A DNA stretch of 64,000 nt, taken from a virus. The position numbers and the translations under genes are program-made. This document shows positions 45,213-60,190 of the stretch, one piece after another (position 1 is the first letter of the stretch; each line of letters begins with the position of its first letter). Location of the stretch: IMG/VR virus record IMGVR_UViG_3300017917_002795, positions 76,595 through 140,594 of that record, one strand, 5' to 3'. The notes beneath the pieces were generated by a model. It saw only the letters and a list, made by a program, of their open reading frames with translations. It made no database searches and had not been told where the DNA came from.

Positions 45213-45995
45213 ATGTTAATAGAAGGCATCAGATTTGAAAACAATCAAGTGGTATTTGATTTTGCAAACGACCAACCTGATGATATCATTCCATTAAAAC
45301 TACAAAAATACAACGATAAGTTTGTAAGCATGAACAACATACCTACTTATTATGCGTATCGCATAAACCCATCATATAAAGGTTCTGTTCAGTCTGATCC
45401 AAGAATTGCTACGGTTCGAGATGCTATAAAAAATGTAACAATCAGCCGAGAAGATTATGTTCGTTTCATTACCAAGGCATTCATCAATTTTGATCAACGC
45501 GTTGACAAGTTAAGTTCGTATGATTTAATTGTTTTGCCACAATCATCATCACCCCTGCTAGTTCAAGTAGTTGAATCATTAGGTCAAAAATATGGAACTG
45601 CCATTGAAGTTATTGATTCTGCATTTGTAAAAAACAAGATAACTGATATAACGGTAGATCCGCAAATTATTCAAGGTATCCGAGACAAATATGGTGATAA
45701 AAAAGCAGATTACATTGCAAAACGGTATGCGGACTTAATCAAATCAGCAGAAGTTAATGGTGAATTCAAAATGAAGAAGATTCCTACGGATATGGGATTT
45801 CGTAGAGGTATCACAAATTTTCTTCATATCAATGATAACCGTAAAGATGCAATACTTAAACAAGTTTATGGCGGAAAGATTTTGATTGTAGATGACATCA
45901 TTACAAGTGGTACTACTATGGTTGAAATGAAACGGTTATTAGATGATTTAGGTGCCGCATCAGTTAACTTATTTTGCATATTAGGTTTAAGATAA
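45213..45995 (+). CDS. Type I phosphoribosyltransferase-like protein (ComF-like)
   Basis: PRPP-binding loop ILIVDDIITSGTT; V.PQSSS. Confidence 0.8.
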   Translation: MLIEGIRFENNQVVFDFANDQPDDIIPLKLQKYNDKFVSMNNIPTYYAYRINPSYKGSVQSDPRIATVRDAIKNVTISREDYVRFITKAFINFDQRVDKLSSYDLIVLPQSSSPLLVQVVESLGQKYGTAIEVIDSAFVKNKITDITVDPQIIQGIRDKYGDKKADYIAKRYADLIKSAEVNGEFKMKKIPTDMGFRRGITNFLHINDNRKDAILKQVYGGKILIVDDIITSGTTMVEMKRLLDDLGAASVNLFCILGLR

Positions 45996-45996
45996 T

Positions 45997-46025
45997 TTGG
46001 ATTGTTGTATTTTTTTCATTATCTT
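45997..46025 (+). promoter_or_regulatory. Early promoter, predicted leaderless transcript
   Basis: TTGGAT-N17-TATCTT, ending 6 nt before ATG 46032. Confidence 0.65.
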
Positions 46026-46031
46026 TATGTT

Positions 46032-46370
46032 ATGAAACTAGCAGTTGTTGGTAGTAGATCTTTTTCGGACAAAACCATGTTAACAAATATATTAGATCAA
46101 CAACAGAATATTTCTTGCATCATATCCGGTGGTGCTCGTGGGGTTGACACATTAGCAGAACAGTGGGCACGATCCAAAAATGTTGAAACTAAAATCTTTT
46201 TGCCGGATTGGTTGTCATATGGTCGAGCAGCAGGTCCAATACGAAATCGAAACATCATTGAAGCGTGTGATGAATGCGTTGCATTTTGGGATGGAGAAAG
46301 CCCCGGCACGCGAAGTTCAATTGAATTATGTAATAAGTTAGGAAAACCTATCAAGATAGTTATCATTTAA
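46032..46370 (+). CDS. SLOG-superfamily protein (YspA/DUF2493-like)
   Basis: AVVGSR, IISGGARGVD, W..YGRAAGPIRN and AFWDGESPGT motifs. Confidence 0.82.
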   Translation: MKLAVVGSRSFSDKTMLTNILDQQQNISCIISGGARGVDTLAEQWARSKNVETKIFLPDWLSYGRAAGPIRNRNIIEACDECVAFWDGESPGTRSSIELCNKLGKPIKIVII

Positions 46371-46418: not shown

Positions 46419-47138
46419 ATGACAAAAGAACAAAGAAAAAATTTAGAATTAGTTGAATCTGGTTTCGCGAATGGCATTTCCACTCAACTTGCAACGAAAC
46501 AGGCAATATTTGGACCAGATGCTGAATTAACTCAAGAAGAAAAACAAGCAATCATTACGGAGGCTGCATATCACTATGGTGAATTCTTAAGAGCATTAGG
46601 AGTAGCTTGGGAAAATGACCCTAATAGCGCAGATACTCCACGCAGAGTTGCAAAGGCGTATGTAAATGATTTATGGGCTGGTCGTTATAATCCAATGTCA
46701 GGCATCACAGCATTTCCTAGTGACGGATATGATGGAATTGTACAAGAAAGTAATATACCAGTAACATCAATGTGCTCACATCACCATGAAACAATTATGG
46801 GTAATGTTAGTATTGCATATATTCCTGCGAAAGATGGCAAGGTAGTGGGGCTTAGCAAGTTAAATAGAATCGTAGAGCATTTTGGTAGACGAGGTTCAAT
46901 TCAAGAACAATTAACAGTTGCTGTACATAATGCTGTAGATCAGATCTGTGAAGGTAATTTAGGCGTTGCTGTAATGATTAATGCAACACATAATTGCGTG
47001 CAATGCAGAGGTGTTAAACATAGAGGCGCATCAATGCAAACAGCAAAACTTTCAGGTGCTTTCTTAGACGATCCAGCAGCTCGAGCAGAATTTTATAAAA
47101 ATATGGAATTTGCAACTAGTTGTAAACATAATCATTGA
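46419..47138 (+). CDS. folE: GTP cyclohydrolase I
   Basis: TPRRVAK, SMCSHH, GLSKLNR, IQEQLT and HNCVQCRGV motifs. Confidence 0.95.
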   Translation: MTKEQRKNLELVESGFANGISTQLATKQAIFGPDAELTQEEKQAIITEAAYHYGEFLRALGVAWENDPNSADTPRRVAKAYVNDLWAGRYNPMSGITAFPSDGYDGIVQESNIPVTSMCSHHHETIMGNVSIAYIPAKDGKVVGLSKLNRIVEHFGRRGSIQEQLTVAVHNAVDQICEGNLGVAVMINATHNCVQCRGVKHRGASMQTAKLSGAFLDDPAARAEFYKNMEFATSCKHNH

Positions 47139-47151
47139 TACATCATTATCA

Positions 47152-47200
47152 ATAATATTTTTTTAATGGTAACTACATATTTATATTAAAAGGATATTAT
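47152..47200 (+). promoter_or_regulatory. RBS/start-sequestering hairpin with a late motif in the loop
   Basis: ATAATATTTTTTTAAT (47152-47167) pairs with ATTAAAAGGATATTAT (47185-47200): 14 Watson-Crick plus 2 GU. ATATTTAT at 47177. Confidence 0.7.
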
Positions 47201-47840
47201 GGTAACATGTAAATTATGTAAAAAAGATTTTCATCGAATTTCGAATACACATTTAAAGCGCCATGGAATTACATGTAATGAATATATGCAACAATTTCCA
47301 GATGCCGAAATGGTTGATGCCGAATTGAAAAAACAAATATCATTATCATCATATGGAAAAACATATGAACAGAGATATGGCGTAGAAACTGCAACTAAAT
47401 TACGAGAACAGCGTAAAGTTGATGCAAAAAAACAATTTTCTGATATTGAACAACGTAGAATTCGATTTAATTCAAATTGGAAAGGATATGGAGATTTATC
47501 AGGAGATCATTGGCGTCGTATTCAGAATGGAGCTTTAGGACGAAATTTAGAACTAAATATTACAATTGAAGATGCGTGGAATGTTTACTTGAAACAAAAT
47601 GGTAAATGTGCAATATCAGGAATTGATATTACATTAAGAGGCCAAAAAATAGGAATGTCTTCAAAATCTGTACATGAAAAAACTACAGCATCGCTGGATA
47701 GAATTGACAGTAGTAAAGGCTATACTATTGATAATATACAGTGGATACATAAAGATTTGAATCAAATGAAAAGTGATCGTACTATGGAGACATTTTTATA
47801 TTGGGTAAAAACTATATACGAAAATAAATTTGGAATTTAA
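47199..47840 (+). CDS. Free-standing HNH-like endonuclease with N-terminal Zn finger
   Basis: CKLC...THL..HG; CAISG...ASLDRIDSSKGY..DNIQW....N.MK. Confidence 0.75.
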   Translation: MVTCKLCKKDFHRISNTHLKRHGITCNEYMQQFPDAEMVDAELKKQISLSSYGKTYEQRYGVETATKLREQRKVDAKKQFSDIEQRRIRFNSNWKGYGDLSGDHWRRIQNGALGRNLELNITIEDAWNVYLKQNGKCAISGIDITLRGQKIGMSSKSVHEKTTASLDRIDSSKGYTIDNIQWIHKDLNQMKSDRTMETFLYWVKTIYENKFGI

Positions 47841-47873: not shown

Positions 47874-48446
47874 ATGGGATTAGTAGACCACGCAAAAACA
47901 GAATTAGAAATTTCTGGACTTTTAAGTGAAGAAGGAGATTTCTACGGAGGAATGACAGGTAAAGCTGTTTTAGAATTAATGGAAGTATTCTCCAAACAAG
48001 GACACTCTGGAATGTCAGCACCAATTGTAGCTGATTTATTTCAAAAATTAGCCAATTATAAACCACTTGGACCTATTACAGGAAAAGATGAGGAATGGAA
48101 TTTGTTAGATTATGGTGATGATCTTAAATATCAAAACAAACGCGTATCTGGATTATTTAAAGACGCAGACGGTAAAGTAACTTACAACACAGGTATAATT
48201 AAAAGAACACCAAATGGCGGAACATGGTCTGGACCACTTTATTTAACACGAGAAGATGCAATTAACAATACTAATATGATTCGTTCATCACAAGAAATAA
48301 AAGGATTTCCTTTTACGCCAAAAACTTTTTATATTGACGTATTAGAGGAAGAAATTGAAAAAGATGACTGGATTATGTGGTGTAAAGATCCTTCGCAATT
48401 GGACGACGTATGGGAATATTATAAAAAACCAGAATTTTTAAAATAA
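47874..48446 (+). CDS. Conserved phage hypothetical protein
   Basis: HA..EL...F..QGHSG.SA...PL.P.TG...EW pattern. Confidence 0.6.
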   Translation: MGLVDHAKTELEISGLLSEEGDFYGGMTGKAVLELMEVFSKQGHSGMSAPIVADLFQKLANYKPLGPITGKDEEWNLLDYGDDLKYQNKRVSGLFKDADGKVTYNTGIIKRTPNGGTWSGPLYLTREDAINNTNMIRSSQEIKGFPFTPKTFYIDVLEEEIEKDDWIMWCKDPSQLDDVWEYYKKPEFLK

Positions 48447-48453
48447 AAAAAAG

Positions 48454-48918
48454 ATGGCAAAGTTTACATCAACTAAACTATTCGACGGATATTCAACATG
48501 TTTTCGTCAATGGCGAGCAGAAGATACACATTGCAAATTCCTTCACGGATATGCAGTTTCATTCCGAGTATGGTTTGAAGGTGATTTAGATCATCGCAAC
48601 TGGGTATTTGATTTTGGTGGCATGAAGCGAGCTAAAGCACAGATACACGGTATGTCTCCAAAAGAGTACTTTGCATTTCTATTAGATCACACTACAATTA
48701 TTGCAATTGATGATCCTCATTTGAAACTGTTTCAAATAATGGATGAATACGGTCTTATTCAATTACGCATACTACCAGCCACCGGATGTGAGAAGTTCGC
48801 AGAGCATCTGTACTTTGTGATTAATGCATTCTTAAAAGAAGAAACCGAAGGCAGAGTCCGAGCCGTTAAAGTAGAAGTTTATGAACACGAAAGAAACTCA
48901 GCAAGTTATGAAGAGTGA
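48454..48918 (+). CDS. queD: 6-carboxytetrahydropterin synthase
   Basis: CKFLHGY (CxxxHG[H/Y]), WVFDFG, LDH, GCE and terminal E..NSA.Y. Confidence 0.88.
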   Translation: MAKFTSTKLFDGYSTCFRQWRAEDTHCKFLHGYAVSFRVWFEGDLDHRNWVFDFGGMKRAKAQIHGMSPKEYFAFLLDHTTIIAIDDPHLKLFQIMDEYGLIQLRILPATGCEKFAEHLYFVINAFLKEETEGRVRAVKVEVYEHERNSASYEE

Positions 48919-49282
48919 AGATCAATATATATCACTTTATGAATATTTAGGTAAAGGTTCTGGTGGTACAAATACTGGTCGAGAAGTTACAGCAGAAGCC
49001 ATTAAACGTGGTATTGATATTAAATGGCGAACTCTTCCTAAAGAAGCACAACGACCAGAATATACACAAGTACAGATATATCCATTATCATTTCTAGATG
49101 ATTATTTTGGTAACGTGGACAATGCCAATAACATTGAAGTAGACCGAACTCCAATTGTAAGACGTTCTGAATTAATTAAGATACAAAAACGATTAGAAGA
49201 TCTAGAAGCTAAATTTGCCGAAGTAATTAAAAAATTAGAAATACCAACTAAATTAGAAGATGACTATGACCTCCCATTCTAA
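48908..49282 (+). CDS. Hypothetical protein
   Basis: Start AGTTATG overlaps the queD end; SLYEYLG...YP..FL..YF. Confidence 0.55.
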   Translation: MKSEDQYISLYEYLGKGSGGTNTGREVTAEAIKRGIDIKWRTLPKEAQRPEYTQVQIYPLSFLDDYFGNVDNANNIEVDRTPIVRRSELIKIQKRLEDLEAKFAEVIKKLEIPTKLEDDYDLPF

Positions 49283-50051
49283 ACCTAGAATTACAGACTA
49301 TAATAAAACGTTACCAATTGTAGAACTTTATAGATGCGTTCAGTCAGAAGGATCTAGATTTGGCCGCCCTACTATTGCAGTTAGAACTACAGGTTGCACT
49401 CACAGATGCTATTTTGGAGAGGGCGGATGGTGCGATAGCTGGTATACTTCTATTCACCCAGAGAAAGGCACGTTCACTTTCAATGATATCATTGCCATAT
49501 ATGACGAAAATCCACATATTAAAGAAATGATGCTTACAGGTGGTTCTCCCACAATGCATCCAGCCCTAGTAAACGAATTAACCCATTTTGCTCATGAAAA
49601 AAACATTCTTATCACCATTGAAACCGAAGGATCCCATTTTATCGAAACAGATTATCCTATTGGTCTTGTTAGCCTCAGCCCTAAATTTAGCAACAGCGTC
49701 CCTGTGGTTGGTACTACTACGCCTCTTGGGAATATTGTAGACCAAAAAATGATTGATCAACATAACAAGTTTAGAATGAAGCTTGCTACAATGAGCCAGA
49801 TGATTCACTTCCATACGGATTATCATTTCAAACCAGTATGGGATGGAACGGACAAGAATCTACAAGAAATTGAAAACATTCGCACTTTACTTAATATTCC
49901 AAAAGACAAAACATATATAATGCCCGCAGGAGATACTAGAGAGGAATTAATTAAAATGTATTCACTTGTTTTTGAAATATGTGCTGAAAAGGGATATAAT
50001 ATGACAGGAAGGGATCACATAATAAGTTACGATACAAAGAGGGGAGTATGA
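49260..50051 (+). CDS. queE: 7-carboxy-7-deazaguanine synthase (radical SAM)
   Basis: VQSEG..G.P...VRT.GC..RC.......CDS.YT; TGGSP; IETEG; SLSPK. Confidence 0.9.
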   Translation: MTMTSHSKPRITDYNKTLPIVELYRCVQSEGSRFGRPTIAVRTTGCTHRCYFGEGGWCDSWYTSIHPEKGTFTFNDIIAIYDENPHIKEMMLTGGSPTMHPALVNELTHFAHEKNILITIETEGSHFIETDYPIGLVSLSPKFSNSVPVVGTTTPLGNIVDQKMIDQHNKFRMKLATMSQMIHFHTDYHFKPVWDGTDKNLQEIENIRTLLNIPKDKTYIMPAGDTREELIKMYSLVFEICAEKGYNMTGRDHIISYDTKRGV

Positions 50052-51234: not shown

Positions 51235-51479
51235 TAGAAGCATTAGGGTGGATTAGTACCGGATTAGTACTAGTAGGATACATATCCAATGCAACTGGAA
51301 ACACAAAACTAGCTATGGTTACCTGGATTGCGGGCGACATTGGTTGGATTACGTATGATTTCTTCATTGACAATTTCAGTCATTTGGTTTTAAGTTTAGT
51401 TATCATTATTATTAATTTATACGGAATATATAGGTTATGGAAATCATCATCAGACGCGAAGAAATTGCCGAACGAGTAA
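51231..51479 (+). CDS. Small 3-TM membrane protein (PnuC/SemiSWEET-like size and pattern)
   Basis: LGW...; W..G...W..Y; INLYGIY.W; three hydrophobic segments. Confidence 0.5.
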   Translation: MIEALGWISTGLVLVGYISNATGNTKLAMVTWIAGDIGWITYDFFIDNFSHLVLSLVIIIINLYGIYRLWKSSSDAKKLPNE

Positions 51480-51943
51480 ACGATTTAGCAATAGAAATTT
51501 CAATTGACCATAAAGAATCTGGGAATGAATTGCCACCGGTAATGATTTGCATATTAAATGGATCAATACATTTCTTTTCAGATTTGACCAGAGCAATGAC
51601 CATTGATTGTGAAATAGATTTCTTGAGATTAAAATCATATGAAGGTCAAGACAATTCTGGAGGTATCAAGTGCCTTAAAGAATTAGAATTAGAACTCAAA
51701 GGCAAACGAGTTTATATCGTTGATGACATTTGCGATACCGGTGCAACATTGTTAGAAGCAATGCTGATGTGTAATAGTCGAATGGCACAAGAAGTAAAAA
51801 TAGTTACGTTGCTAAAAAGACGAGATGGTGTTGATATAACCAATTACTGCGGCTTTGAAATAGGAGATGACTGGGTTATTGGCTATGGATTAGACAATAA
51901 CGGTATTCAACGAGAATTACATAATATATACAAGATAAACTAG
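51437..51943 (+). CDS. hpt: Hypoxanthine/guanine phosphoribosyltransferase
   Basis: ILNGS..F.SDL.R, SYEG, VDDICDTGATL and WVIGYGLD motifs. Confidence 0.9.
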   Translation: MEIIIRREEIAERVNDLAIEISIDHKESGNELPPVMICILNGSIHFFSDLTRAMTIDCEIDFLRLKSYEGQDNSGGIKCLKELELELKGKRVYIVDDICDTGATLLEAMLMCNSRMAQEVKIVTLLKRRDGVDITNYCGFEIGDDWVIGYGLDNNGIQRELHNIYKIN

Positions 51944-51952
51944 AAAGAATTA

Positions 51953-54466
51953 ATGTATCAAAATATTGCATACGACAAGAAAAATAACGTAATTCATGTG
52001 TGGGATGATGAATTAGGTCATCAGAAATTTACATTTCAACCATACGCATATTTACCAGATGATGCTGGAGATTATGTTTCGTTGGATGGTACTAAATTAC
52101 GATTAGTATCAGGTAATCATCGAGACAATCCAAAAGCATATGAATCAGACCTAAATGAAGAAGTTAGGACTCTAATTGATTTATATCATGAATCAGATGC
52201 TCCATCCAAAGGACATAGAGAATTGTTTTTTGATATTGAGGTTGAACGCGATGAAAATGGATATTCAACTCCAGAAGAAGCACGATTACGCATAACATCC
52301 ATTGCATATTATGATAAAGCTAACAAAGCAATGCATGTTTTACTACTAGATGTAAACCAACAAGCCAACGCAACTTCTTTTGAAACTCCGCGGTATCAAG
52401 TTGAAATATTTGAAACAGAAGCAGCAATGTTAACACAGTTTGTTAATGCATTTGCTCGAATTCAACCGACAATCATAACAGGCTGGAATACGGATAATTT
52501 CGATATACCATATCTTGTTAACCGCATCAAACAGGTATTAGGTGCTCAAGCAGTTAAGAAACTTTCTCCAGCTGGAATTACGGATTGGCAGAAAAGCAAA
52601 GGTCGATACAAAATATATGGTGTATCAAGTTTAGATTACTTAACATTATATAAAAAGTTTACATATACCGAACTTGCCAATTATCGATTAGATACTGTGG
52701 CTAAGACCGAATTAGGACGCGGAAAAGTAGAATATGATGGTGATTTAGATCAACTATTTGCTACGGATATCAAACGATTTGTTGAATACAACGTAACAGA
52801 CGTTGAATTAGTATATGAATTAGATGAAAAACTACAGTTATTAGCACTTGCAAGAACTATTTGCCATAAAGGACACGTTCCTTATGAAGATGTGTATTAT
52901 GCATCTAAATATCTGGATGGTGCTGCAATTGTAGACCTGAAGCGTAACGGAAAAGTAGCTCCAAACAAAGCCCATCGGTTTGTTGAAGAAGAAACAGAAG
53001 CTGACGCATTAGCTGGTGCATATGTAATGCCCCCAGTACCAGGCCTATATAAATGGATCTATGACTTAGATTTAACATCACTATATCCTAGCATCATCAT
53101 GTCATTGAATATCTCTCCAGAAACTAAAATAGGAGTGATTGAAGGATGGAATGAAGAATGCATGTTATCTGCAACGCCAACTATTGCACGTATTAACGGC
53201 CAATTGATACCAGATGTTCGTCAATGGTTAACGGATAATTCGTATACTATTGCAAGTAACGGAGCAGTATATCGCACGGATATTAAAGGATTCTTACCTA
53301 CCATTCTAGAAAAATGGTTTGATGAACGTGTTGAATTTAAGGATAAGCGTGATGAATATGAAGTAGGAACTGAAATGTATAAGTTTTATGATGCATTGCA
53401 GTTAACGCAAAAAGTATTGCTTAATTCATTTTATGGAGTATTAGGACTTAAAACATTCCGTTTCCACGACCTAGATAATGCAGGTGCTATTACAGGAACC
53501 GGTCAAAGTGTAATTAAGTTCTCAGCTAAAGTAATCAATGCACATTATGCAAAAGAAATTGGTAAGGACCATTTCATCAATGCAACCGGTATGCCAGCAG
53601 AATTTGCATTTTATACAGATACGGATTCGACATTCTGCTCTTCATTGCCATTGATTCAAGCTCGTTTCCCGGATTTTGATGAAACAGATGAACAATTTAT
53701 GATTGAACAGACCAATGCAATTGCATCTGAAGTTCAGCGTAAGGTTAATGCTATGTATGACATATATGCAGTCAAGTTTCACAATACAGCAACACATCGT
53801 TGGCAGATCAAACAAGAATACATTGCAAAATCCGGTTTATGGATTGCTAAGAAGCGTTATGCACAATGGGTTATTTTCAAAGAAGGTAAACCTACGGATA
53901 AATTAGACATCAAAGGATTAGACGTTGTTAGATCATCTTTCCCGGAAGATTTCAAAAAGATAATGAAAGAAACATTGTGGTATATTCTTAAGGAAAAGGA
54001 TAAGACTGCAACATCGGATATGATTCATAAATTCAAGTCTGGATTGAAAAATTCCGAAGTACTCAATGTTATGAAGAATTCCGGAGTCAAAGAAATATCC
54101 AAATTCATCAAAGGTAGAAAGCCATTTACAGGATATCAATCAGGTACTCCAGCACACGTTAAAGCAGCAATCAATTTCAATGACCTTTTGCATATGTTTG
54201 GCATCAAAGACATCACACCAATTCAAAACGGAGAAAAGGTTAAATGGGCATACTTATCAGATAATCCATATGGCTTTGATACCATGGCACTTCGAGGATA
54301 CCAAGATCCAACACAAACCGTTGCATTTGTTACGCAATACATTGATCGCAACAAGATCTTTGAAAAGGAATTGAAAAACAAGCTAGATGATTTTTATGCT
54401 GCAATGAATTGGGGTGCATTTCCAGAAAATAATTCGGTTGCCAAGTTTTTTTCATTTGGGAAATAG
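51953..54466 (+). CDS. Family-B DNA polymerase (gp43-like) with 3'-5' exonuclease
   Basis: FDIEV, GWN...FDIPY, YN..DV, DLTSLYPS, K..LNS.YG, YTDTDS and KKRY motifs. Confidence 0.96.
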   Translation: MYQNIAYDKKNNVIHVWDDELGHQKFTFQPYAYLPDDAGDYVSLDGTKLRLVSGNHRDNPKAYESDLNEEVRTLIDLYHESDAPSKGHRELFFDIEVERDENGYSTPEEARLRITSIAYYDKANKAMHVLLLDVNQQANATSFETPRYQVEIFETEAAMLTQFVNAFARIQPTIITGWNTDNFDIPYLVNRIKQVLGAQAVKKLSPAGITDWQKSKGRYKIYGVSSLDYLTLYKKFTYTELANYRLDTVAKTELGRGKVEYDGDLDQLFATDIKRFVEYNVTDVELVYELDEKLQLLALARTICHKGHVPYEDVYYASKYLDGAAIVDLKRNGKVAPNKAHRFVEEETEADALAGAYVMPPVPGLYKWIYDLDLTSLYPSIIMSLNISPETKIGVIEGWNEECMLSATPTIARINGQLIPDVRQWLTDNSYTIASNGAVYRTDIKGFLPTILEKWFDERVEFKDKRDEYEVGTEMYKFYDALQLTQKVLLNSFYGVLGLKTFRFHDLDNAGAITGTGQSVIKFSAKVINAHYAKEIGKDHFINATGMPAEFAFYTDTDSTFCSSLPLIQARFPDFDETDEQFMIEQTNAIASEVQRKVNAMYDIYAVKFHNTATHRWQIKQEYIAKSGLWIAKKRYAQWVIFKEGKPTDKLDIKGLDVVRSSFPEDFKKIMKETLWYILKEKDKTATSDMIHKFKSGLKNSEVLNVMKNSGVKEISKFIKGRKPFTGYQSGTPAHVKAAINFNDLLHMFGIKDITPIQNGEKVKWAYLSDNPYGFDTMALRGYQDPTQTVAFVTQYIDRNKIFEKELKNKLDDFYAAMNWGAFPENNSVAKFFSFGK

Positions 54467-54498: not shown

Positions 54499-54936
54499 AT
54501 GTACGGAAAATCACAATGGCGCGGTAGAGAAGTAGAAGGACGTTATTCAGATGTTATGACATTCTTTGTGCGAAGTTTAGAAAACGGTAAATTGTTGGTG
54601 AAATCATTATCTGAGTATCCACACTACTATTTTACCATAGAATATATGAAAAAATGTTTTGAGAATACTGAAGAAATTTCGATTATTCGCGGAATTTTAG
54701 ATTCCACAAATTGCATAGTCACAATCGAAGCAATTCCAGAAACAATTACACGTATACCACCAGATCTTTTCAATCGATGCCATATTATATATCGTATTCC
54801 TGATACTGCAGTACAACTGCTAAAAGACACTGATACATTGAGTATAGATGCGGGTTGGTATCGATGTCACATGATTGCAAAAATGCATATGCAAGAAACT
54901 AAACCAACATCATATATGTATGATGAGGAAATTTAA
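54499..54936 (+). CDS. Hypothetical protein next to the modification operon
   Basis: G.EVEG......TFFV N-terminal pattern; function not recognised. Confidence 0.6.
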   Translation: MYGKSQWRGREVEGRYSDVMTFFVRSLENGKLLVKSLSEYPHYYFTIEYMKKCFENTEEISIIRGILDSTNCIVTIEAIPETITRIPPDLFNRCHIIYRIPDTAVQLLKDTDTLSIDAGWYRCHMIAKMHMQETKPTSYMYDEEI

Positions 54937-54950
54937 ATGAATTACCAAAT

Positions 54951-54979
54951 TTGGGAATATTAACTAAATTTATTATAAT
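54951..54979 (+). promoter_or_regulatory. Early promoter, predicted leaderless transcript, start of the modification operon
   Basis: TTGGGA-N17-TATAAT, ending 5 nt before ATG 54985. Confidence 0.7.
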
Positions 54980-54984
54980 AGATT

Positions 54985-55401
54985 ATGAAAATAGGAGTGA
55001 TTGCAGGTAACTTTGATGTAATCCACCCGGGTTATATTCATATGTTTAAAGAATGTGAAAAAAATTGTGATCAACTAATAATATTGTTACATGAGGATCC
55101 AACCATTGAACGGCCATCAAAGTTAAAACCAATATTATCGACAGCAGATCGTCGTGAGATGTTAACGTATCTCGTTAAAGGATGTATCATAATGACTTAT
55201 AATACAGAGTATGAGTTAACATTTTTACTAAAGTCAATCGACCCAGATGTTAGATTTCTAGGTGCCGATTACCAATTTGCTGAGTTTACCGGGAAAGAAT
55301 TAAATATACTCATTCATTACATAGACAGAGACCATGGTTGGTCGACCACTAAATTTAAAAAGTTAATAGCAGATGAAGTACAGCGTAGTAGTAACATTTA
55401 G
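54985..55401 (+). CDS. Cytidylyltransferase-like protein (TagD/RfaE-II family)
   Basis: AGNFDVIHPGY (HxGH variant), KPI, GADY and R.HGWSTT motifs. Confidence 0.85.
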   Translation: MKIGVIAGNFDVIHPGYIHMFKECEKNCDQLIILLHEDPTIERPSKLKPILSTADRREMLTYLVKGCIIMTYNTEYELTFLLKSIDPDVRFLGADYQFAEFTGKELNILIHYIDRDHGWSTTKFKKLIADEVQRSSNI

Positions 55402-55723
55402 CATTGAAGGATTTCATTGTTGGCCCGATGCTAAAGATATCTTTCCAGAAGTAGCATTCTTATCTGATAGACATCGACATATGTTTGGATTCCGGTGTTA
55501 TGCAACAGTAACCCATACGGATCGAGATGAAGAATTCATTTTATTGAATCGTGAGATACAAAAGGCTCTTCGCATAAACTATTCCATGGAATATACCAAT
55601 GTATTAGAATTTGGTTCAATGTCGTGTGAGGCAATTGGAGAATGGTTATTAAATGAATTTCCGGCACTTTACAAAGTTGAAGTTTGGGAAGATTTTGAAA
55701 ACGGTGCAATAATAGAAAGATAA
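55373..55723 (+). CDS. QueD-paralog T-fold protein, DpdL-like (candidate CDG decarboxylase)
   Basis: EGFHCWP, LSDRHRHMF (LxxxHRHxF), DRDEEF, SCE and V.ED.ENGA motifs. Confidence 0.65.
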   Translation: MKYSVVVTFSIEGFHCWPDAKDIFPEVAFLSDRHRHMFGFRCYATVTHTDRDEEFILLNREIQKALRINYSMEYTNVLEFGSMSCEAIGEWLLNEFPALYKVEVWEDFENGAIIER

Positions 55724-55736
55724 ATAGAAAGATAAA

Positions 55737-56342
55737 ATGAATACACAAGTTATTAAAATGCGACCTATAGGCAGTTTCTTGCATGAAGGGTTTCAAGATT
55801 TTTGCCAGTTTTTAAAACAACACAATGTTAAGCGTATTTTAGAAATTGGATCATATGCTGGAGAATCCATTACATTGTTTAAGCAGATTTTAGGTGAGAA
55901 TGTGTTAATTGTTTCAATTGATCCGTGGGATACATTGGAAGATGAAAATGATTTAATTCACCAAAATGATTTCAATCGTGTAGAAGCAGTTTTCAATGAC
56001 ACTGTAATATCATATAAGCATCTTGTTAAATGCAAACTGTATAGTCAAGATATCGTTGATATGTTTACTGATGAATATTTTGATTGTTTGTATGTAGATG
56101 GATTACACACTTATGAACAAGTTAAAATTGATTTAGAGTTATATGTATCAAAAGTTAAACCAGGTGGTATTATTTCTGGCCATGACTATGCAATTGAATA
56201 CACTGACAAACAACGCGCAGAAATTTTGAATTTCGAAGGCAATGATCGTTTACGTAAAGCAGTTACGCGTGCAGTGAATGAAGTAGTAGGAGTTCCGGAT
56301 TATGCATTCGGTGATAGTAGTTGGGCATTAATTAAAAAATAA
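55737..56342 (+). CDS. Class I SAM-dependent methyltransferase (Methyltransf_24-like)
   Basis: LEIGSYAGES, SIDPW, YVDGLHTYE.V..D and KPGG.I.GHDY motifs. Confidence 0.88.
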   Translation: MNTQVIKMRPIGSFLHEGFQDFCQFLKQHNVKRILEIGSYAGESITLFKQILGENVLIVSIDPWDTLEDENDLIHQNDFNRVEAVFNDTVISYKHLVKCKLYSQDIVDMFTDEYFDCLYVDGLHTYEQVKIDLELYVSKVKPGGIISGHDYAIEYTDKQRAEILNFEGNDRLRKAVTRAVNEVVGVPDYAFGDSSWALIKK

Positions 56343-56344
56343 AT

Positions 56345-57529
56345 ATGAGAAGAAACGAAGTAAGAAAACTGTTTTATTTTGGTTTAGAACCACTTAAAGC
56401 GCGCTACACATACCAGCTTTCCAAAGAATGGATGCCAGCAACCTTTGAACCATATGAAAAATGCGGTGCAGTTGAATTTGTTGAGATCGAAGGAGAGTTT
56501 GATCCAGATCAACAGATTAAGGTTGGTGCAGTGTTAGATGCTATAGGCCGCGGAAAATATAGTTTAACTCAATGTCAAAACTTTTTACAGAAGATATATC
56601 AAGACGAAGTAGTATCCGGTGATATCATTTTCCTGCAAGATTATTGGACACCAGGCCTGGATGCAATATGGTATGCATTAGATCTATATGGTATTGATGT
56701 TAAGGTGTATGCAATGCTTCATGCACAAAGTGTAGATGAATATGATTTTACATATCCAATGGCACCATGGATGCGGCACTATGAATTAGGTTTAGATAAA
56801 CGATTAGCTGGTATTTTTGTTGGTAGCACAATACACAAACAACAATTACGAGAAGCTGGATTCAAAGCTCCTATACATGTTGTATCTTTGCCAATTCATA
56901 AACAAGCAACATTGGATAAATTGCCTAATGCTAACTATGACAAAAAAGATGTAATTGTATATTCATCTAGATTAGACAAAGAAAAGAATCCATTTTTTAT
57001 GCTAGCAGTAGCTGAGCAATTTTTATCAGAAAATGAATCATTTGAATGGCACGTTACCACATCAGGCAAAGAATTTCGAAGTATGTTGCCCGGTGTTATT
57101 GCGGCAATGCAATCATTATCAGTGCGCCAACCTAGATTCAAACTACTGAGTGGATTAACAAAAGAAGAATATTACACTGAATTAGCAACATGTAGAATTC
57201 AATTCAATACAGCTTTGCAAGATTATGTATCTTGGACTGTGATTGAAGCAACTGCATTTGGAGCTGACATTGTATATCCTAATTTCCGTAGTTTTCCTGA
57301 ATTCATTGAAGCATCTAGACTCTATGTACCTTTCAATGTTGATAGTGCATTACAAGTTATGAAAACTGCATTAAATGCCCCAAAAACACATCCGCATATC
57401 GTGGATTTATCTGATTTAGGGCGACAGTTAGAAGCATTTATCATGGTTAATGATGTTACCCATGAATTAAACATATGGCACGAATCGCAATATTGCAAAC
57501 ATTTAATACAAGGACAAGAAAATGAGTAA
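56345..57529 (+). CDS. GT-B fold glycosyltransferase
   Basis: SSRLDKEKNP; L.K.EYY..L; FN.ALQD.VS.T..EA...G...YP..RSFPE. Overlaps dpdA by 8 bp. Confidence 0.8.
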   Translation: MRRNEVRKLFYFGLEPLKARYTYQLSKEWMPATFEPYEKCGAVEFVEIEGEFDPDQQIKVGAVLDAIGRGKYSLTQCQNFLQKIYQDEVVSGDIIFLQDYWTPGLDAIWYALDLYGIDVKVYAMLHAQSVDEYDFTYPMAPWMRHYELGLDKRLAGIFVGSTIHKQQLREAGFKAPIHVVSLPIHKQATLDKLPNANYDKKDVIVYSSRLDKEKNPFFMLAVAEQFLSENESFEWHVTTSGKEFRSMLPGVIAAMQSLSVRQPRFKLLSGLTKEEYYTELATCRIQFNTALQDYVSWTVIEATAFGADIVYPNFRSFPEFIEASRLYVPFNVDSALQVMKTALNAPKTHPHIVDLSDLGRQLEAFIMVNDVTHELNIWHESQYCKHLIQGQENE

Positions 57530-58775
57530 GAATTTTATATATTTCCCATCATTGTCAGCAGGATCTATGGTATCTGCATTTAAAAAGGATACTAAATTCA
57601 CTGATGGCACTACGATGCGGTTTTTTGCTAAAGAATATCCAGAACAATGGAGACATCCATATTTTTTGATCACAGCAGGTCACCACTACAAAAAAGAAGA
57701 TTTCCGTCAACAAATCGGATTAGATGACGATGTTTTTGTGTTTGGCGATTCAGGAGGATTCCAGATTGCAACTGGTGCTTTAAAATGGGATAGCACTATT
57801 CGTGAAAGAATTTTTCATTGGTTAGAAGCTAATTCCAATGTAGCAGCAAATTTAGATATTCCGCCACGTGTTCAATTTGAAAATCGGTTTCAAGAAGCAA
57901 TGGATATATCATTTGATAATTTTAAATGGTTTGAAAAACATCAGTCAGGCAAAACCAAGTTTTTGAATGTGTTACAAGGCACATTTACCGATGAATACAC
58001 TACCTGGTATCATCGTTTCAAAGATTTTGATTTTAATGGTTGGTGTATTGGTGGTCCTAGAAAACTTGTTAACTTTATGTTTTCAATTGCATTGCTCTTA
58101 AAAGAACGAGAATTTGAAAAGGAGCATGTACAATATATTCACTTGTTAGGCATATCAAAAATATCAGATTTCTTCATACTATCGACTCTGCAAAAGTTAC
58201 TTAATGAGTTAACTGCCGGACGAGTGCAATTATCCACAGATTCATCTTCACCAGGACAATATCCAGTATACGGAACATATTTACACTCAACAAACTATAA
58301 AACGCAGTCATTCACTGAATTGTATTTTCCTAAAAATGCAGAATATCGTCGCAAAACACATATCAAACAAGGAAAAGACGGTGAAATTTCAATTGATAAG
58401 ACAAAACATGTGCCATGCAGCTTAGATTGTCCAGCATGCCGCGATTTTACATATGAATACTTAGGCGGTGAAACTGCAGATGGATTAGATCGTTATTCAC
58501 AAGAAGGAATGCCAAGAATGGTGGTTCATAACACTCATTTGTATGTTACCATGGCAAAAGACATTGACAAACTAGTGGATAATCACGTTGAATTGTTAGA
58601 AACCGCAATACCTGCAGATTTATTCACAGTTATTGTTTCATTGCATGATATGTTTAACGATCCAGATAATGCAATGCAGGTTTATGAAAAATACATCAAA
58701 ACATATAAAAAATTCGGTGGAGATAGTGTATCAACTACCGATGCAGAAAACTTTAACAAATTCTTTAAATTTTAA
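57522..58775 (+). CDS. dpdA: DNA guanine transglycosylase (TGT fold, DpdA family)
   Basis: GDSGGFQ, LDIPP, VLQG, IGG, HLLG, DSSSP and Zn site C..DCPAC...HN; co-located with folE/queD/queE. Confidence 0.82.
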   Translation: MSKNFIYFPSLSAGSMVSAFKKDTKFTDGTTMRFFAKEYPEQWRHPYFLITAGHHYKKEDFRQQIGLDDDVFVFGDSGGFQIATGALKWDSTIRERIFHWLEANSNVAANLDIPPRVQFENRFQEAMDISFDNFKWFEKHQSGKTKFLNVLQGTFTDEYTTWYHRFKDFDFNGWCIGGPRKLVNFMFSIALLLKEREFEKEHVQYIHLLGISKISDFFILSTLQKLLNELTAGRVQLSTDSSSPGQYPVYGTYLHSTNYKTQSFTELYFPKNAEYRRKTHIKQGKDGEISIDKTKHVPCSLDCPACRDFTYEYLGGETADGLDRYSQEGMPRMVVHNTHLYVTMAKDIDKLVDNHVELLETAIPADLFTVIVSLHDMFNDPDNAMQVYEKYIKTYKKFGGDSVSTTDAENFNKFFKF

Positions 58776-58786
58776 TTAGGATAAAC

Positions 58787-59497
58787 ATGGAAAAAAGCAA
58801 ATTACAATCATTCATCAATCGTTACTATTTGGCAGGTAACTGTGAAGCAGTTAAACTCAAAGAAAACGAAACTGGTGTTAGTTCTGAATTGATCGATGTA
58901 GATCAAACCGTTGTTGGTAAGATTCAATGGAAAACGACCCCATTTATGCGAGGTGAATTAGGTATCAATCATACAGGAGCATTGAATAAAATGTTAGGTG
59001 CATTAGGTGAAAATATCACCATCAATGTTAAAGATGCTGCTGGTAAGAACTATGCAATGGAAATTACAGAAGGCAGCACAAAGGTAACTTTCATGTTGGC
59101 TGATACAACGGTTATTCCTGCAGTACCAACTATCAACGCAGAACCAGACTATCAAATTAACATTCCAGTAAACGATGAATTCGTTAGCAAGTTCATTAAG
59201 GCAAAGAATGCTTTACCAGACGCTAAGAATTTTGCAGTGCAAGTTAAAGATGGTGTAATCAAATTCATCATCAATTATTCAACGGTTAATGCAGATAACA
59301 TTTCATTTGAAGTAGGCACAACAAATGCAGATGATATGGAACCAGTATGTTTCTCAGCAGATAAATTGAAAGAAGTACTTGTTGCAAATCGTGGAGATGC
59401 AGGACAATTGCATGTATCACCAGATGGATTGTCTCGAATTGATTTTGTTGGTAATGACTTTGAATCTAGCTATTGGCTTGTTCAATTGCAAAATTAA
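58787..59497 (+). CDS. DNA sliding clamp (gp45/PCNA-like)
   Basis: Size 236 aa; two-domain alternating beta/alpha pattern; near the clamp loader. Confidence 0.65.
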   Translation: MEKSKLQSFINRYYLAGNCEAVKLKENETGVSSELIDVDQTVVGKIQWKTTPFMRGELGINHTGALNKMLGALGENITINVKDAAGKNYAMEITEGSTKVTFMLADTTVIPAVPTINAEPDYQINIPVNDEFVSKFIKAKNALPDAKNFAVQVKDGVIKFIINYSTVNADNISFEVGTTNADDMEPVCFSADKLKEVLVANRGDAGQLHVSPDGLSRIDFVGNDFESSYWLVQLQN

Positions 59498-59522: not shown

Positions 59523-59571
59523 TAATATGGTTCTCATATTTATAATAAAGGAACTATATGGAACCATATTA
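59523..59571 (+). promoter_or_regulatory. Start/RBS-sequestering hairpin with late motif
   Basis: TAATATGGTTC (59523-59533) pairs perfectly with GAACCATATTA (59561-59571); alternatively ATATGGTTCT pairs with GGAACTATAT over the RBS. ATATTTAT at 59536. Confidence 0.75.
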
Positions 59572-60190
59572 TATTTGTGATTGTCCAACATGTGGCAAAC
59601 CTAAGTATTCAAAAGCAAAAAAGAAACCAGTTGGGAAACTATTAGAACAACTAAAAACATGGGAATGTTATAGCTGTTCTAGAAAAGGTGAAAAAAATCC
59701 ATCATATGGTAAAGCTAAAACAGAAGAATGGAAACGAAAAGTTTCGGAAAAAAATAAAGGATGTATTGGATATTGGACAGGTAAACGTCATACGATTGAA
59801 TCAAATCAAAAAAGATCTGCAAGTTTAATAAAATCATATGAAACAAAAAAACGTAAAGCTGATGGATATTTAATATCTTTGGGAATGGAAAATGGATTGG
59901 CAATTGGACTAACTAGAGAAGAATATGAACAATTAATTTCGGATAAACGGCGTTATTATAATGCAGTTCATAAAATAACTAATCGACAAAATATAAAAAG
60001 TTTAGAACATTATGAAAAACGCGGTAAATCAAAAAAAGGAACAGACAATTATCAATTAGATCATATTATACCAATATCAGAGGGATTTCGGAATAATATA
60101 GATCCTAATATTATTGGAGATATAACTAATTTAAGATTTATTCCATGGAAAGAAAATATATTAAGAACTAAGATAAATAGAATAATTTAA
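59558..60190 (+). CDS. Free-standing HNH endonuclease with Zn finger and NUMOD3-like motifs
   Basis: CPTC...CYSC; GEKNPSYGK...EE.K.K.S; YQLDHIIP...NLRFIPW.EN. Confidence 0.82.
   Translation: MEPYYICDCPTCGKPKYSKAKKKPVGKLLEQLKTWECYSCSRKGEKNPSYGKAKTEEWKRKVSEKNKGCIGYWTGKRHTIESNQKRSASLIKSYETKKRKADGYLISLGMENGLAIGLTREEYEQLISDKRRYYNAVHKITNRQNIKSLEHYEKRGKSKKGTDNYQLDHIIPISEGFRNNIDPNIIGDITNLRFIPWKENILRTKINRII

Follow-up and report, generated by a model that had tools for sequence, protein, structure and literature searches.

A predicted module for 7-deazaguanine modification of DNA, without QueC and with an integral glycosyltransferase, in an uncultured T4-like phage

We describe a gene cluster from the last 64 kb (hereafter, the window) of the 140.6-kb IMG/VR record IMGVR_UViG_3300017917_002795, whose source is an uncultured T4-like phage. 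Six open reading frames (ORFs), running from a 145-amino-acid protein that we call u145 to a transglycosylase of the TGT superfamily, are bracketed by PolB upstream and the sliding clamp downstream. Together with genes for FolE, QueD and QueE, sited 4.5-8 kb upstream, they are predicted to constitute a module that modifies DNA with 7-deazaguanine, does without QueC and has a glycosyltransferase (GT) as an integral part. The best single reading of this module, to which we give a little less than an even chance, is that it yields a sugar-decorated deazaguanine in DNA, the decoration here perhaps being methylated. An earlier note on this DNA had likewise proposed a sugar on deazaguanine in DNA. 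The module and a competent-looking GT, on which that proposal relied, hold up, whereas we infer the sugar's place on the DNA base.

The genes concerned are listed below in window coordinates. For the ORFs between PolB and the clamp, the boundaries, overlaps, gaps and flanks in the ORF table are exactly as the earlier note gave them.

46419-47138, + strand: FolE (GTP cyclohydrolase I), first step to 7-carboxy-7-deazaguanine (CDG); PF01227, E 1.2e-43
48454-48918, + strand: QueD (PTPS family); PF01242, E 1.5e-13; CKFLHGY replaces CxxxHGH
49260-50051, + strand: QueE-like radical SAM enzyme (putative CDG synthase); PF04055, 27.5 bits, slightly below cut-off
51437-51943, + strand: purine-type phosphoribosyltransferase; PF00156, E 1.2e-21
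51953-54466: PolB; library-supported (Pfam, PHROGs, NCBIfam)
54499-54936, + strand: u145, 145 amino acids; no family match; core gene
54985-55401, + strand: cytidylyl/adenylyl-transferase-like protein (HIGH superfamily); PF01467; accessory gene
55373-55723, + strand: DpdL-type T-fold protein, 116 amino acids; LSDRHRHMF; accessory gene; 29-bp overlap with the preceding ORF
55737-56342, + strand: S-adenosylmethionine-dependent O-methyltransferase-like protein (Methyltransf_24); PF13578; sub-lineage-specific; preceded by a 13-nt gap
56345-57529, + strand: GT4-type retaining GT-B glycosyltransferase by predicted fold, 394 amino acids; core gene; preceded by a 2-nt gap
57522-58775, + strand: DpdA-family (TGT-superfamily) transglycosylase by hhalign and DSGGFQ, 417 amino acids; core gene; 8-bp overlap with the GT gene
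58787-59497, + strand: sliding clamp; NF002222, E 8e-5; position kept in relatives

Conservation of the gene set

Our neighborhood survey covered 80 IMG/VR loci, 64 of which had room downstream and 55 room upstream of the GT gene. A homolog of the transglycosylase gene (TGT-like) lies directly 3' of the GT gene in 64 of 64 loci, and u145 lies 5' of it in 55 of 55. The GT is thus always found beside the transglycosylase, and in the window the overlap of the two ORFs would couple them translationally. By contrast, the content between u145 and the GT gene varies:

Nothing: 31 of 55 loci
Nucleotidyltransferase and DpdL: 15 of 55 loci
DpdL only: 7 of 55 loci
DpdL and methyltransferase: 1 of 55 loci
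Nucleotidyltransferase only: 1 of 55 loci

Accordingly, the nucleotidyltransferase is present in 16 of the 55 loci (absent from 39) and DpdL in 23 (absent from 32). The methyltransferase occurs beyond the window at two loci only (L006 and L007), and the complete gene set is unique to the window, whose particular feature is the O-methyltransferase and nucleotidyltransferase together. The five genes from the nucleotidyltransferase to DpdA, which the earlier note had treated as one operon with u145 outside it, are therefore a mosaic rather than a conserved unit: the only constant members across loci are u145, the GT and the DpdA-family transglycosylase, and u145 belongs to the invariant core. Because the other three genes are so often absent, they are optional, and the GT must normally use a donor from the host. 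An operon that provides itself with an activated donor is thus not the general case and would be confined to a sub-lineage, given the 39 loci without a nucleotidyltransferase.

The same association recurs in cultured phages, where the GT is found in 18 of the 23 records that have a DpdL homolog. Gene order differs among them:

BUCT-ZZ01: QueE, phosphoribosyltransferase, QueD, FolE, DpdA-like, DpdL, GT
Deifobo and PA5oct: PolB, TGT-like, GT, DpdL, QueE
ACP17: QueD, FolE, small protein, DpdA, GT, DpdL, QueE
BUDD, X1 and BCSR5: small u145-like protein, GT, TGT-like
Phosso: DpdL, then GT directly; the TGT-like match is far from the GT

Among 185,579 prokaryote genomes the GT family is near-absent (3 contigs), and at least two of these contigs have QueD, FolE or QueE-like genes around the GT. 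On an Altiarchaeales contig from a metagenome-assembled genome (MAG; L089:1856-3888), a GT2-like gene (PF00535, sub-threshold) lies ahead of a GT homolog (39% identical), a pairing from which one might suspect that some lineages attach two sugars. On two MAG contigs the GT family lies inside a deazaguanine cluster.

By their TGT-like protein, PolB and clamp, the relatives fall into two lineages, with ~80% and ~50% identity to the window, one of them having DpdL and the other lacking it. We considered a shift in base specificity as the cause of the split between the two TGT clades, which are ~50% identical, and rejected it: PolB and the clamp diverge equally between the same groups, so the split reflects lineage history. 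Oddly, the GT, QueE and FolE do not follow it and are about equally similar to the window (65-78%) in both lineages. From these identities, the GT appears to be either unusually constrained or exchanged between lineages.

A deazaguanine route that ends at CDG

The upstream genes supply a plausible pathway to the modified base. Across 15 relatives, annotated phage QueE among them, C46 and C58 of the QueE-like protein never vary, and C50 is kept in at least 90%. No QueC was found in the record, which is an estimated 83% complete, and none scored above the cut-off in five complete genomes of GT-bearing cultured phages. By homology, FolE, QueD and QueE without QueC make up a 7-deazaguanine route ending at CDG, in agreement with the deazaguanine module first proposed for this DNA. 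The QueD of the window and of all relatives reads C-x-x-L-H-G-Y, with a tyrosine in place of one presumed zinc ligand. A phosphoribosyltransferase gene lies directly upstream of PolB in many relatives as well, and a xanthine-guanine phosphoribosyltransferase adjoins QueE in BUCT-ZZ01; the enzyme of the window likely salvages the guanine freed by base exchange.

The 116-amino-acid protein of the cluster contains LSDRHRHMF, an exact match to LxxxHRHxF. It is this signature, in place of CxxxHGH in a QueD-like T-fold paralog, that defines DpdL, a proposed but unproven CDG decarboxylase that would give 7-deazaguanine (Cui et al. 2023, PMC10516641). Although it has no match in Pfam (PTPS included), PHROGs or NCBIfam, the protein aligns with homologs that carry the same motif, namely ACP17 gp125 and those of BUDD, BUCT-ZZ01, Deifobo and MAG contig L090. 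The DpdL-like label that it had been given can thus be sharpened to a true DpdL-type protein.

A DpdA-family transglycosylase with a clamp-type tail

Pfam alone does not identify the transglycosylase, since the window protein scores below threshold against PF01702 (21.2 bits; cut-off 26.3). The family is matched by eight of 18 TGT-like relatives, with a best E of 2e-6, and an hhalign comparison of the TGT-like family with the DpdA-like proteins of ACP17, BUCT-ZZ01, BUDD and BCSR5 returned a probability of 97.1% (E 5.6e-11, 287 columns). Two motifs, G75-D-S-G-G-F-Q81 and D240-S-S-S, are invariant across the 18 relatives, and their counterparts in the alignment with ACP17-type proteins are DSGGLQ and DST. 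Vibrio phages nt-1 and VH7D, for their part, have a DpdA to which ACP17 gp123 is ~34% identical. The hhalign match, the DSGGFQ motif and this link through ACP17 all place the 417-amino-acid protein in the DpdA family, as the earlier note had it, despite the sub-threshold Pfam score. A tblastn search of phages with the window protein matched Phosso and PA5oct-like phages only, leaving phiST and Campylobacter DpdA3 unmatched, and neither single-sequence nor profile searches of PDB sequences gave a match.

Upon comparing C-termini, we noticed that the TGT-like protein ends in NKFFKF and PolB in AKFFSFGK. These two are alone among the record's 277 ORFs (of at least 60 amino acids) in having a terminal KFF[SK]F, a tail that the GT of the window does not share. 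Both phenylalanines of the KFFxF tail are invariant in the TGT-like family. T4-type polymerases bind the clamp through such a C-terminal hydrophobic peptide. The shared PolB-like tail and the clamp gene directly downstream suggest that the DpdA-like enzyme is tethered to the clamp through KFFKF and that base exchange is coupled to replication.

A GT4-type glycosyltransferase

An AlphaFold2 model of the GT, built on an alignment of 54 sequences of 28-52% identity, reached a mean predicted local distance difference test score (pLDDT) of 95.8. In Foldseek searches its best matches were MshA and BshA (E ~1e-13), and VIA-align superposed it on BshA over 319 residues (Z 26.8, root-mean-square deviation 2.9) and on MshA, sucrose-phosphate synthase, SenB, PimA and others with Z 23-27. 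The sequence profile aligns to the phosphate-binding RxxxxK and the EX7E regions of GT4 enzymes, represented by RLDxxK and ExxxxxxxE in WlaC and WbaZ. In line with this alignment, R209 and K214 are invariant among the 54 relatives and D293-x7-E301 is at least 90% conserved, an aspartate replacing the first glutamate of EX7E. The window GT itself falls below the Pfam gathering score for Glycos_transf_1 (18.8 versus 26.4 bits). Two relatives exceed it (P0150, 29.8 bits; P0236, 27.7 bits), and for many close relatives a PF00534 match is precomputed. We are confident, from the model, that this protein is a GT4-type retaining GT-B enzyme, and its conserved residues make it look catalytically competent. 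Its original assignment as a GT-B glycosyltransferase is upheld, and the family is tied to deazaguanine modules in many lineages.

The T4 alpha- and beta-glucosyltransferases (AGT and BGT) are absent from the best 50 matches in each fold list; a cyanophage protein named 'DNA alpha-GT' ranks 36 in BFVD for the window GT. The family is large (844 matches among 90% clusters; at 50% identity, 899 clusters) and plentiful in marine metagenomes, with several members in cultured phages. Its longer representatives hold no deazaguanine-gene domains, and P0236 has a low-complexity tail. A distant 726-amino-acid representative, P0244, has an intein-like insertion (PF14890, sub-threshold), consistent with strong selection on this gene in phages that have many homing elements. 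A scan of viral contigs with another distant representative, P0198, gave no match.

u145 and the accessory genes

The third core protein, u145, has no match in Pfam, PHROG or NCBIfam, and a tblastn search of phages found none either, so that BLAST connects it neither to DpdM nor to any protein of a cultured phage. Weak homologs are nonetheless encoded directly upstream of the GT in BCSR5, BUDD and L090. Its AlphaFold2 model (pLDDT 91) has QueE proteins as its best structural matches, weak ones at Z 6.2, 5.4 and 5.2, and an N-terminal E-x-E-G...T-x-x-V-R pattern stands in register between u145 and the window QueE. Against this, hhalign of u145 with QueE was not significant (0.8% probability), ESM Atlas matches were at chance level, and Foldseek against the PDB returned none below E 0.09. 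Conserved cysteines are lacking. As a lead only, u145 is possibly a QueE-derived ligand-binding domain without an iron-sulfur cluster.

The nucleotidyltransferase matches PF01467 (E 2e-10, 41.3 bits; cut-off 21), phrog_7878 (6e-31), TIGR02199 (8e-14) and TIGR00125 (36.3 bits; cut-off 27.7), as well as 3glv (E 3e-7) and TagD in the PDB, and it resembles RfaE domain II and TagD. It carries the C-terminal RxHGWSTT motif. In place of the HxGH signature it has H14-P-G-Y17, the tyrosine being invariant in nine relatives, so its substrate may be atypical. The methyltransferase matches Methyltransf_24 (PF13578, E 2.3e-17), and its distant relatives are named 'predicted O-methyltransferase YrrM', which assigns it by sequence to the YrrM-like O-methyltransferase class. 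For both genes the family matches bear out the cytidylyltransferase-like and methyltransferase identities proposed at the outset.

Relation to known systems

The closest known relative is the system of Cellulophaga phage phiST that makes the deoxynucleoside of 7-deazaguanine (dDG) with FolE, QueD, QueE, DpdL and DpdA3 (PMC10516641). Both systems share a QueC-less route ending at CDG, a QueD paralog with LxxxHRHxF, and a divergent TGT/DpdA beside a polymerase gene. The window family differs by adding the GT4 enzyme and u145 as constant partners of the transglycosylase, with DpdL optional; the window lineage further adds the nucleotidyltransferase and O-methyltransferase, and its transglycosylase has no tblastn match to DpdA3. 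In E. coli, dpdL plus dpdA of either ACP17 or phiST gave no dDG, and missing enzymes were suggested; phiST, which does make dDG, has two extra genes of unknown function without homologs in other deazaguanine phages (Cui et al. 2023, PMC10516641).

Bacterial Dpd systems (DpdA, DpdB, DpdC) and phage DpdA1/2 (dPreQ0, dADG, dPreQ1 and related bases) exchange guanine in DNA by a TGT-superfamily enzyme, as is proposed for the window, and the window DpdA is joined to that of nt-1 and VH7D through the ACP17-type DpdA. Unlike them, the window lacks QueC, QueF, DpdB and DpdC, and its DpdA has a C-terminal extension with a polymerase-like, clamp-type tail and is coupled to a GT.

A phage GT-B enzyme that would decorate a modified DNA base from a nucleotide-sugar has a parallel in the T4 alpha- and beta-glucosyltransferases, which act on 5-hydroxymethylcytosine. 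The window GT is GT4-like and thus of another family, its proposed target is a purine, and there is neither a hydroxymethyl acceptor nor a ThyA-like gene. To our knowledge, all known DNA glycosylations are on pyrimidines: 5-hydroxymethylcytosine, base J (derived from 5-hydroxymethyluracil) and 5-hydroxycytosine. In eukaryotic tRNA, mannosyl- and galactosyl-queuosine arise when a GT glycosylates a derivative of 7-deazaguanine that is part of the nucleic acid by then. That sugar, however, sits in RNA on the hydroxyl of a cyclopentenediol, a side chain that the window module cannot make.

A functional likeness is offered by huimycin and dapiramicin, in which O-methylation of a FolE-QueD-QueE 7-deazaguanine scaffold precedes the attachment of a sugar from a UDP-sugar donor, much as the window pairs an O-methyltransferase-like gene with a GT. 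Actinomycetes make these soluble metabolites from preQ0, with QueC and without a nucleic-acid transglycosylase, and the window methyltransferase is confined to one sub-lineage. In huimycin, HuiC (an O-methyltransferase) and HuiG (a glycosyltransferase) decorate preQ0 (bioRxiv 10.64898/2026.04.15.718813). This precedent indicates that deazaguanine scaffolds can be both glycosylated and O-methylated, and it makes the exocyclic N2 a candidate acceptor. For glycosylated deazaguanine in DNA we found no report in the searchable literature, in keeping with the earlier statement that no glycosylated form is known among phage deazaguanines.

Proposed mechanism and alternatives

The gene content suggests the following scheme. 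By homology, FolE, QueD and QueE convert GTP to CDG, which the DpdL-type protein, where present, may decarboxylate to 7-deazaguanine. The transglycosylase, held at the fork by its KFFKF tail and the sliding clamp, would exchange guanine for deazaguanine in newly made duplex DNA, and the purine phosphoribosyltransferase would recycle the guanine set free. The GT4-type enzyme would then transfer a sugar from a nucleotide-sugar to the deazaguanine, most likely after its insertion into DNA; candidates for the acceptor are the 7-carboxyl of CDG and, by analogy with huimycin and dapiramicin, the exocyclic N2. We picture u145 as an obligatory helper, possibly a QueE-derived deazapurine-binding domain. 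Two extras belong to the sub-lineage: a special activated donor may come from the small nucleotidyltransferase, and the O-methyltransferase may methylate sugar or base. The complete picture, namely a first glycosylated purine in DNA with a GT4-added sugar, a clamp-tethered DpdA, a QueE-derived third component and, in this lineage, an O-methylated or unusual sugar, asks for more at once, and we put it forward tentatively, with somewhat less conviction than the sugar-bearing base itself.

Several points weigh against a sugar on deazaguanine in DNA. 7-Deazaguanine itself bears no hydroxyl. Loci that lack DpdL retain the GT just as those that have it do, so if DpdL is a decarboxylase, the acceptor is not solely the 7-carboxyl. 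The close structural neighbors of the modeled GT all use small-molecule or glycan acceptors, and its fold therefore gives no support for DNA as the target; we know of no GT4 enzyme that acts on DNA or on a deazapurine. Neither the longer representatives nor a separate search for longer forms yielded a GT-TGT fusion, although the latter search is weak evidence. phiST makes dDG, and no Cellulophaga phage was among the matches of two tblastn searches with the GT, which argues that the GT is not needed for dDG as such. Finally, the estimated completeness of the record limits what the absence of QueC can say.

One alternative we consider unlikely but the most serious: the DNA holds plain dDG or its CDG counterpart (dCDG), and the GT makes a soluble glycoside of a free pterin or deazapurine as a sink, store or signal. 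The best structural neighbors are indeed small-molecule GT4 enzymes (BshA, MshA, SenB, LmbT), a tetrahydrobiopterin glucosyltransferase appears in the fold list (Z 22-24), FolE and QueD make pterins, and the huimycin GT works on the free deazapurine. The module proteins, acidic as they are, also have no obvious DNA-binding charge. What such a soluble product leaves unexplained is that the GT always adjoins a DNA transglycosylase, coupled to it inside a block of replication genes, and that the family is phage-specific; moreover, a secondary metabolite would be without evident use to a lytic phage. Isoelectric points, which we tried as an indicator of DNA binding, were set aside as uninformative, since all module proteins are acidic.

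Rather less probable is a transient sugar, in which case the GT and u145 would be required for the base to be synthesized or installed, perhaps because they activate CDG or aid DpdL or DpdA, and the sugar would then be lost, so that the final DNA carries dDG or dCDG. This would accommodate the failure of ACP17 dpdL and dpdA alone to give dDG in E. coli, as the ACP17 GT gene lies between them, and it would suit a core of u145 and GT with an optional DpdL and the weak likeness of u145 to the substrate-binding half of QueE. It is disfavored by the case of phiST, which makes dDG while no Cellulophaga phage showed a GT homolog, and by the fact that no GT4 enzyme is known to play such a part, and it leaves the O-methyltransferase and nucleotidyltransferase of this lineage unexplained.

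Least probable of all, the GT could be unrelated to deazaguanine and merely co-travel in the early/replication block while its target is a different DNA base, a protein of the phage or the host, or a glycan on the host surface, as might be supposed from how very common GT4 enzymes are in phages for other ends, from the sub-threshold Pfam score and from the distant TGT-like match in Phosso; yet at least eight lineages whose gene orders otherwise differ have the GT next to deazaguanine genes, the Phosso GT still directly follows DpdL, and the record has no ThyA-like enzyme to create a pyrimidine acceptor. Indeed, no thymidylate-synthase-like hydroxylase or hydroxymethylase was found in the record, which makes a 5-hydroxy- or hydroxymethyl-pyrimidine acceptor unlikely.

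If a sugar-bearing deazaguanine is what the module makes, a sugar on 7-deazaguanine would be a DNA hypermodification of a new chemical class. The failure to reconstitute dDG from ACP17 dpdL and dpdA alone could then have its explanation. A sugar-bearing base would also offer an identity for the as yet unidentified modified G of PA5oct-like therapeutic jumbo phages; the way in which PA5oct DNA resists enzymes indicates that its G is modified. Furthermore, it would be relevant to the restriction, glycosylase and END-type defenses that such phages escape or trigger.

Other features of the locus

The earlier note had placed one early promoter at 54951 at the head of the cluster. The site is there and is the region's best (TTGGGA-17-TATAAT, 10/12). 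The call itself, however, was rejected for want of statistical support, because the region's promoter-like sites are no more numerous than chance allows (26 seen versus 26.8 expected in shuffled sequence). A second TTGGGA site lies at 54456, ahead of u145.

Several further genes lie nearby. Just upstream of FolE (window 45213-46370) are a ComF-like phosphoribosyltransferase (PF00156) and then an SLOG/YspA-type protein (PF10686). Between FolE and QueD lies a homolog of the Tad3-family Thoeris inhibitor (47874-48446; PF25185, E 1.8e-33), preceded by a homing-endonuclease-like ORF (47199-47840). Another homing-endonuclease-like ORF, with NUMOD3 (window 59558-60190), sits between the clamp and dUTPase, a position where most relatives lack it.

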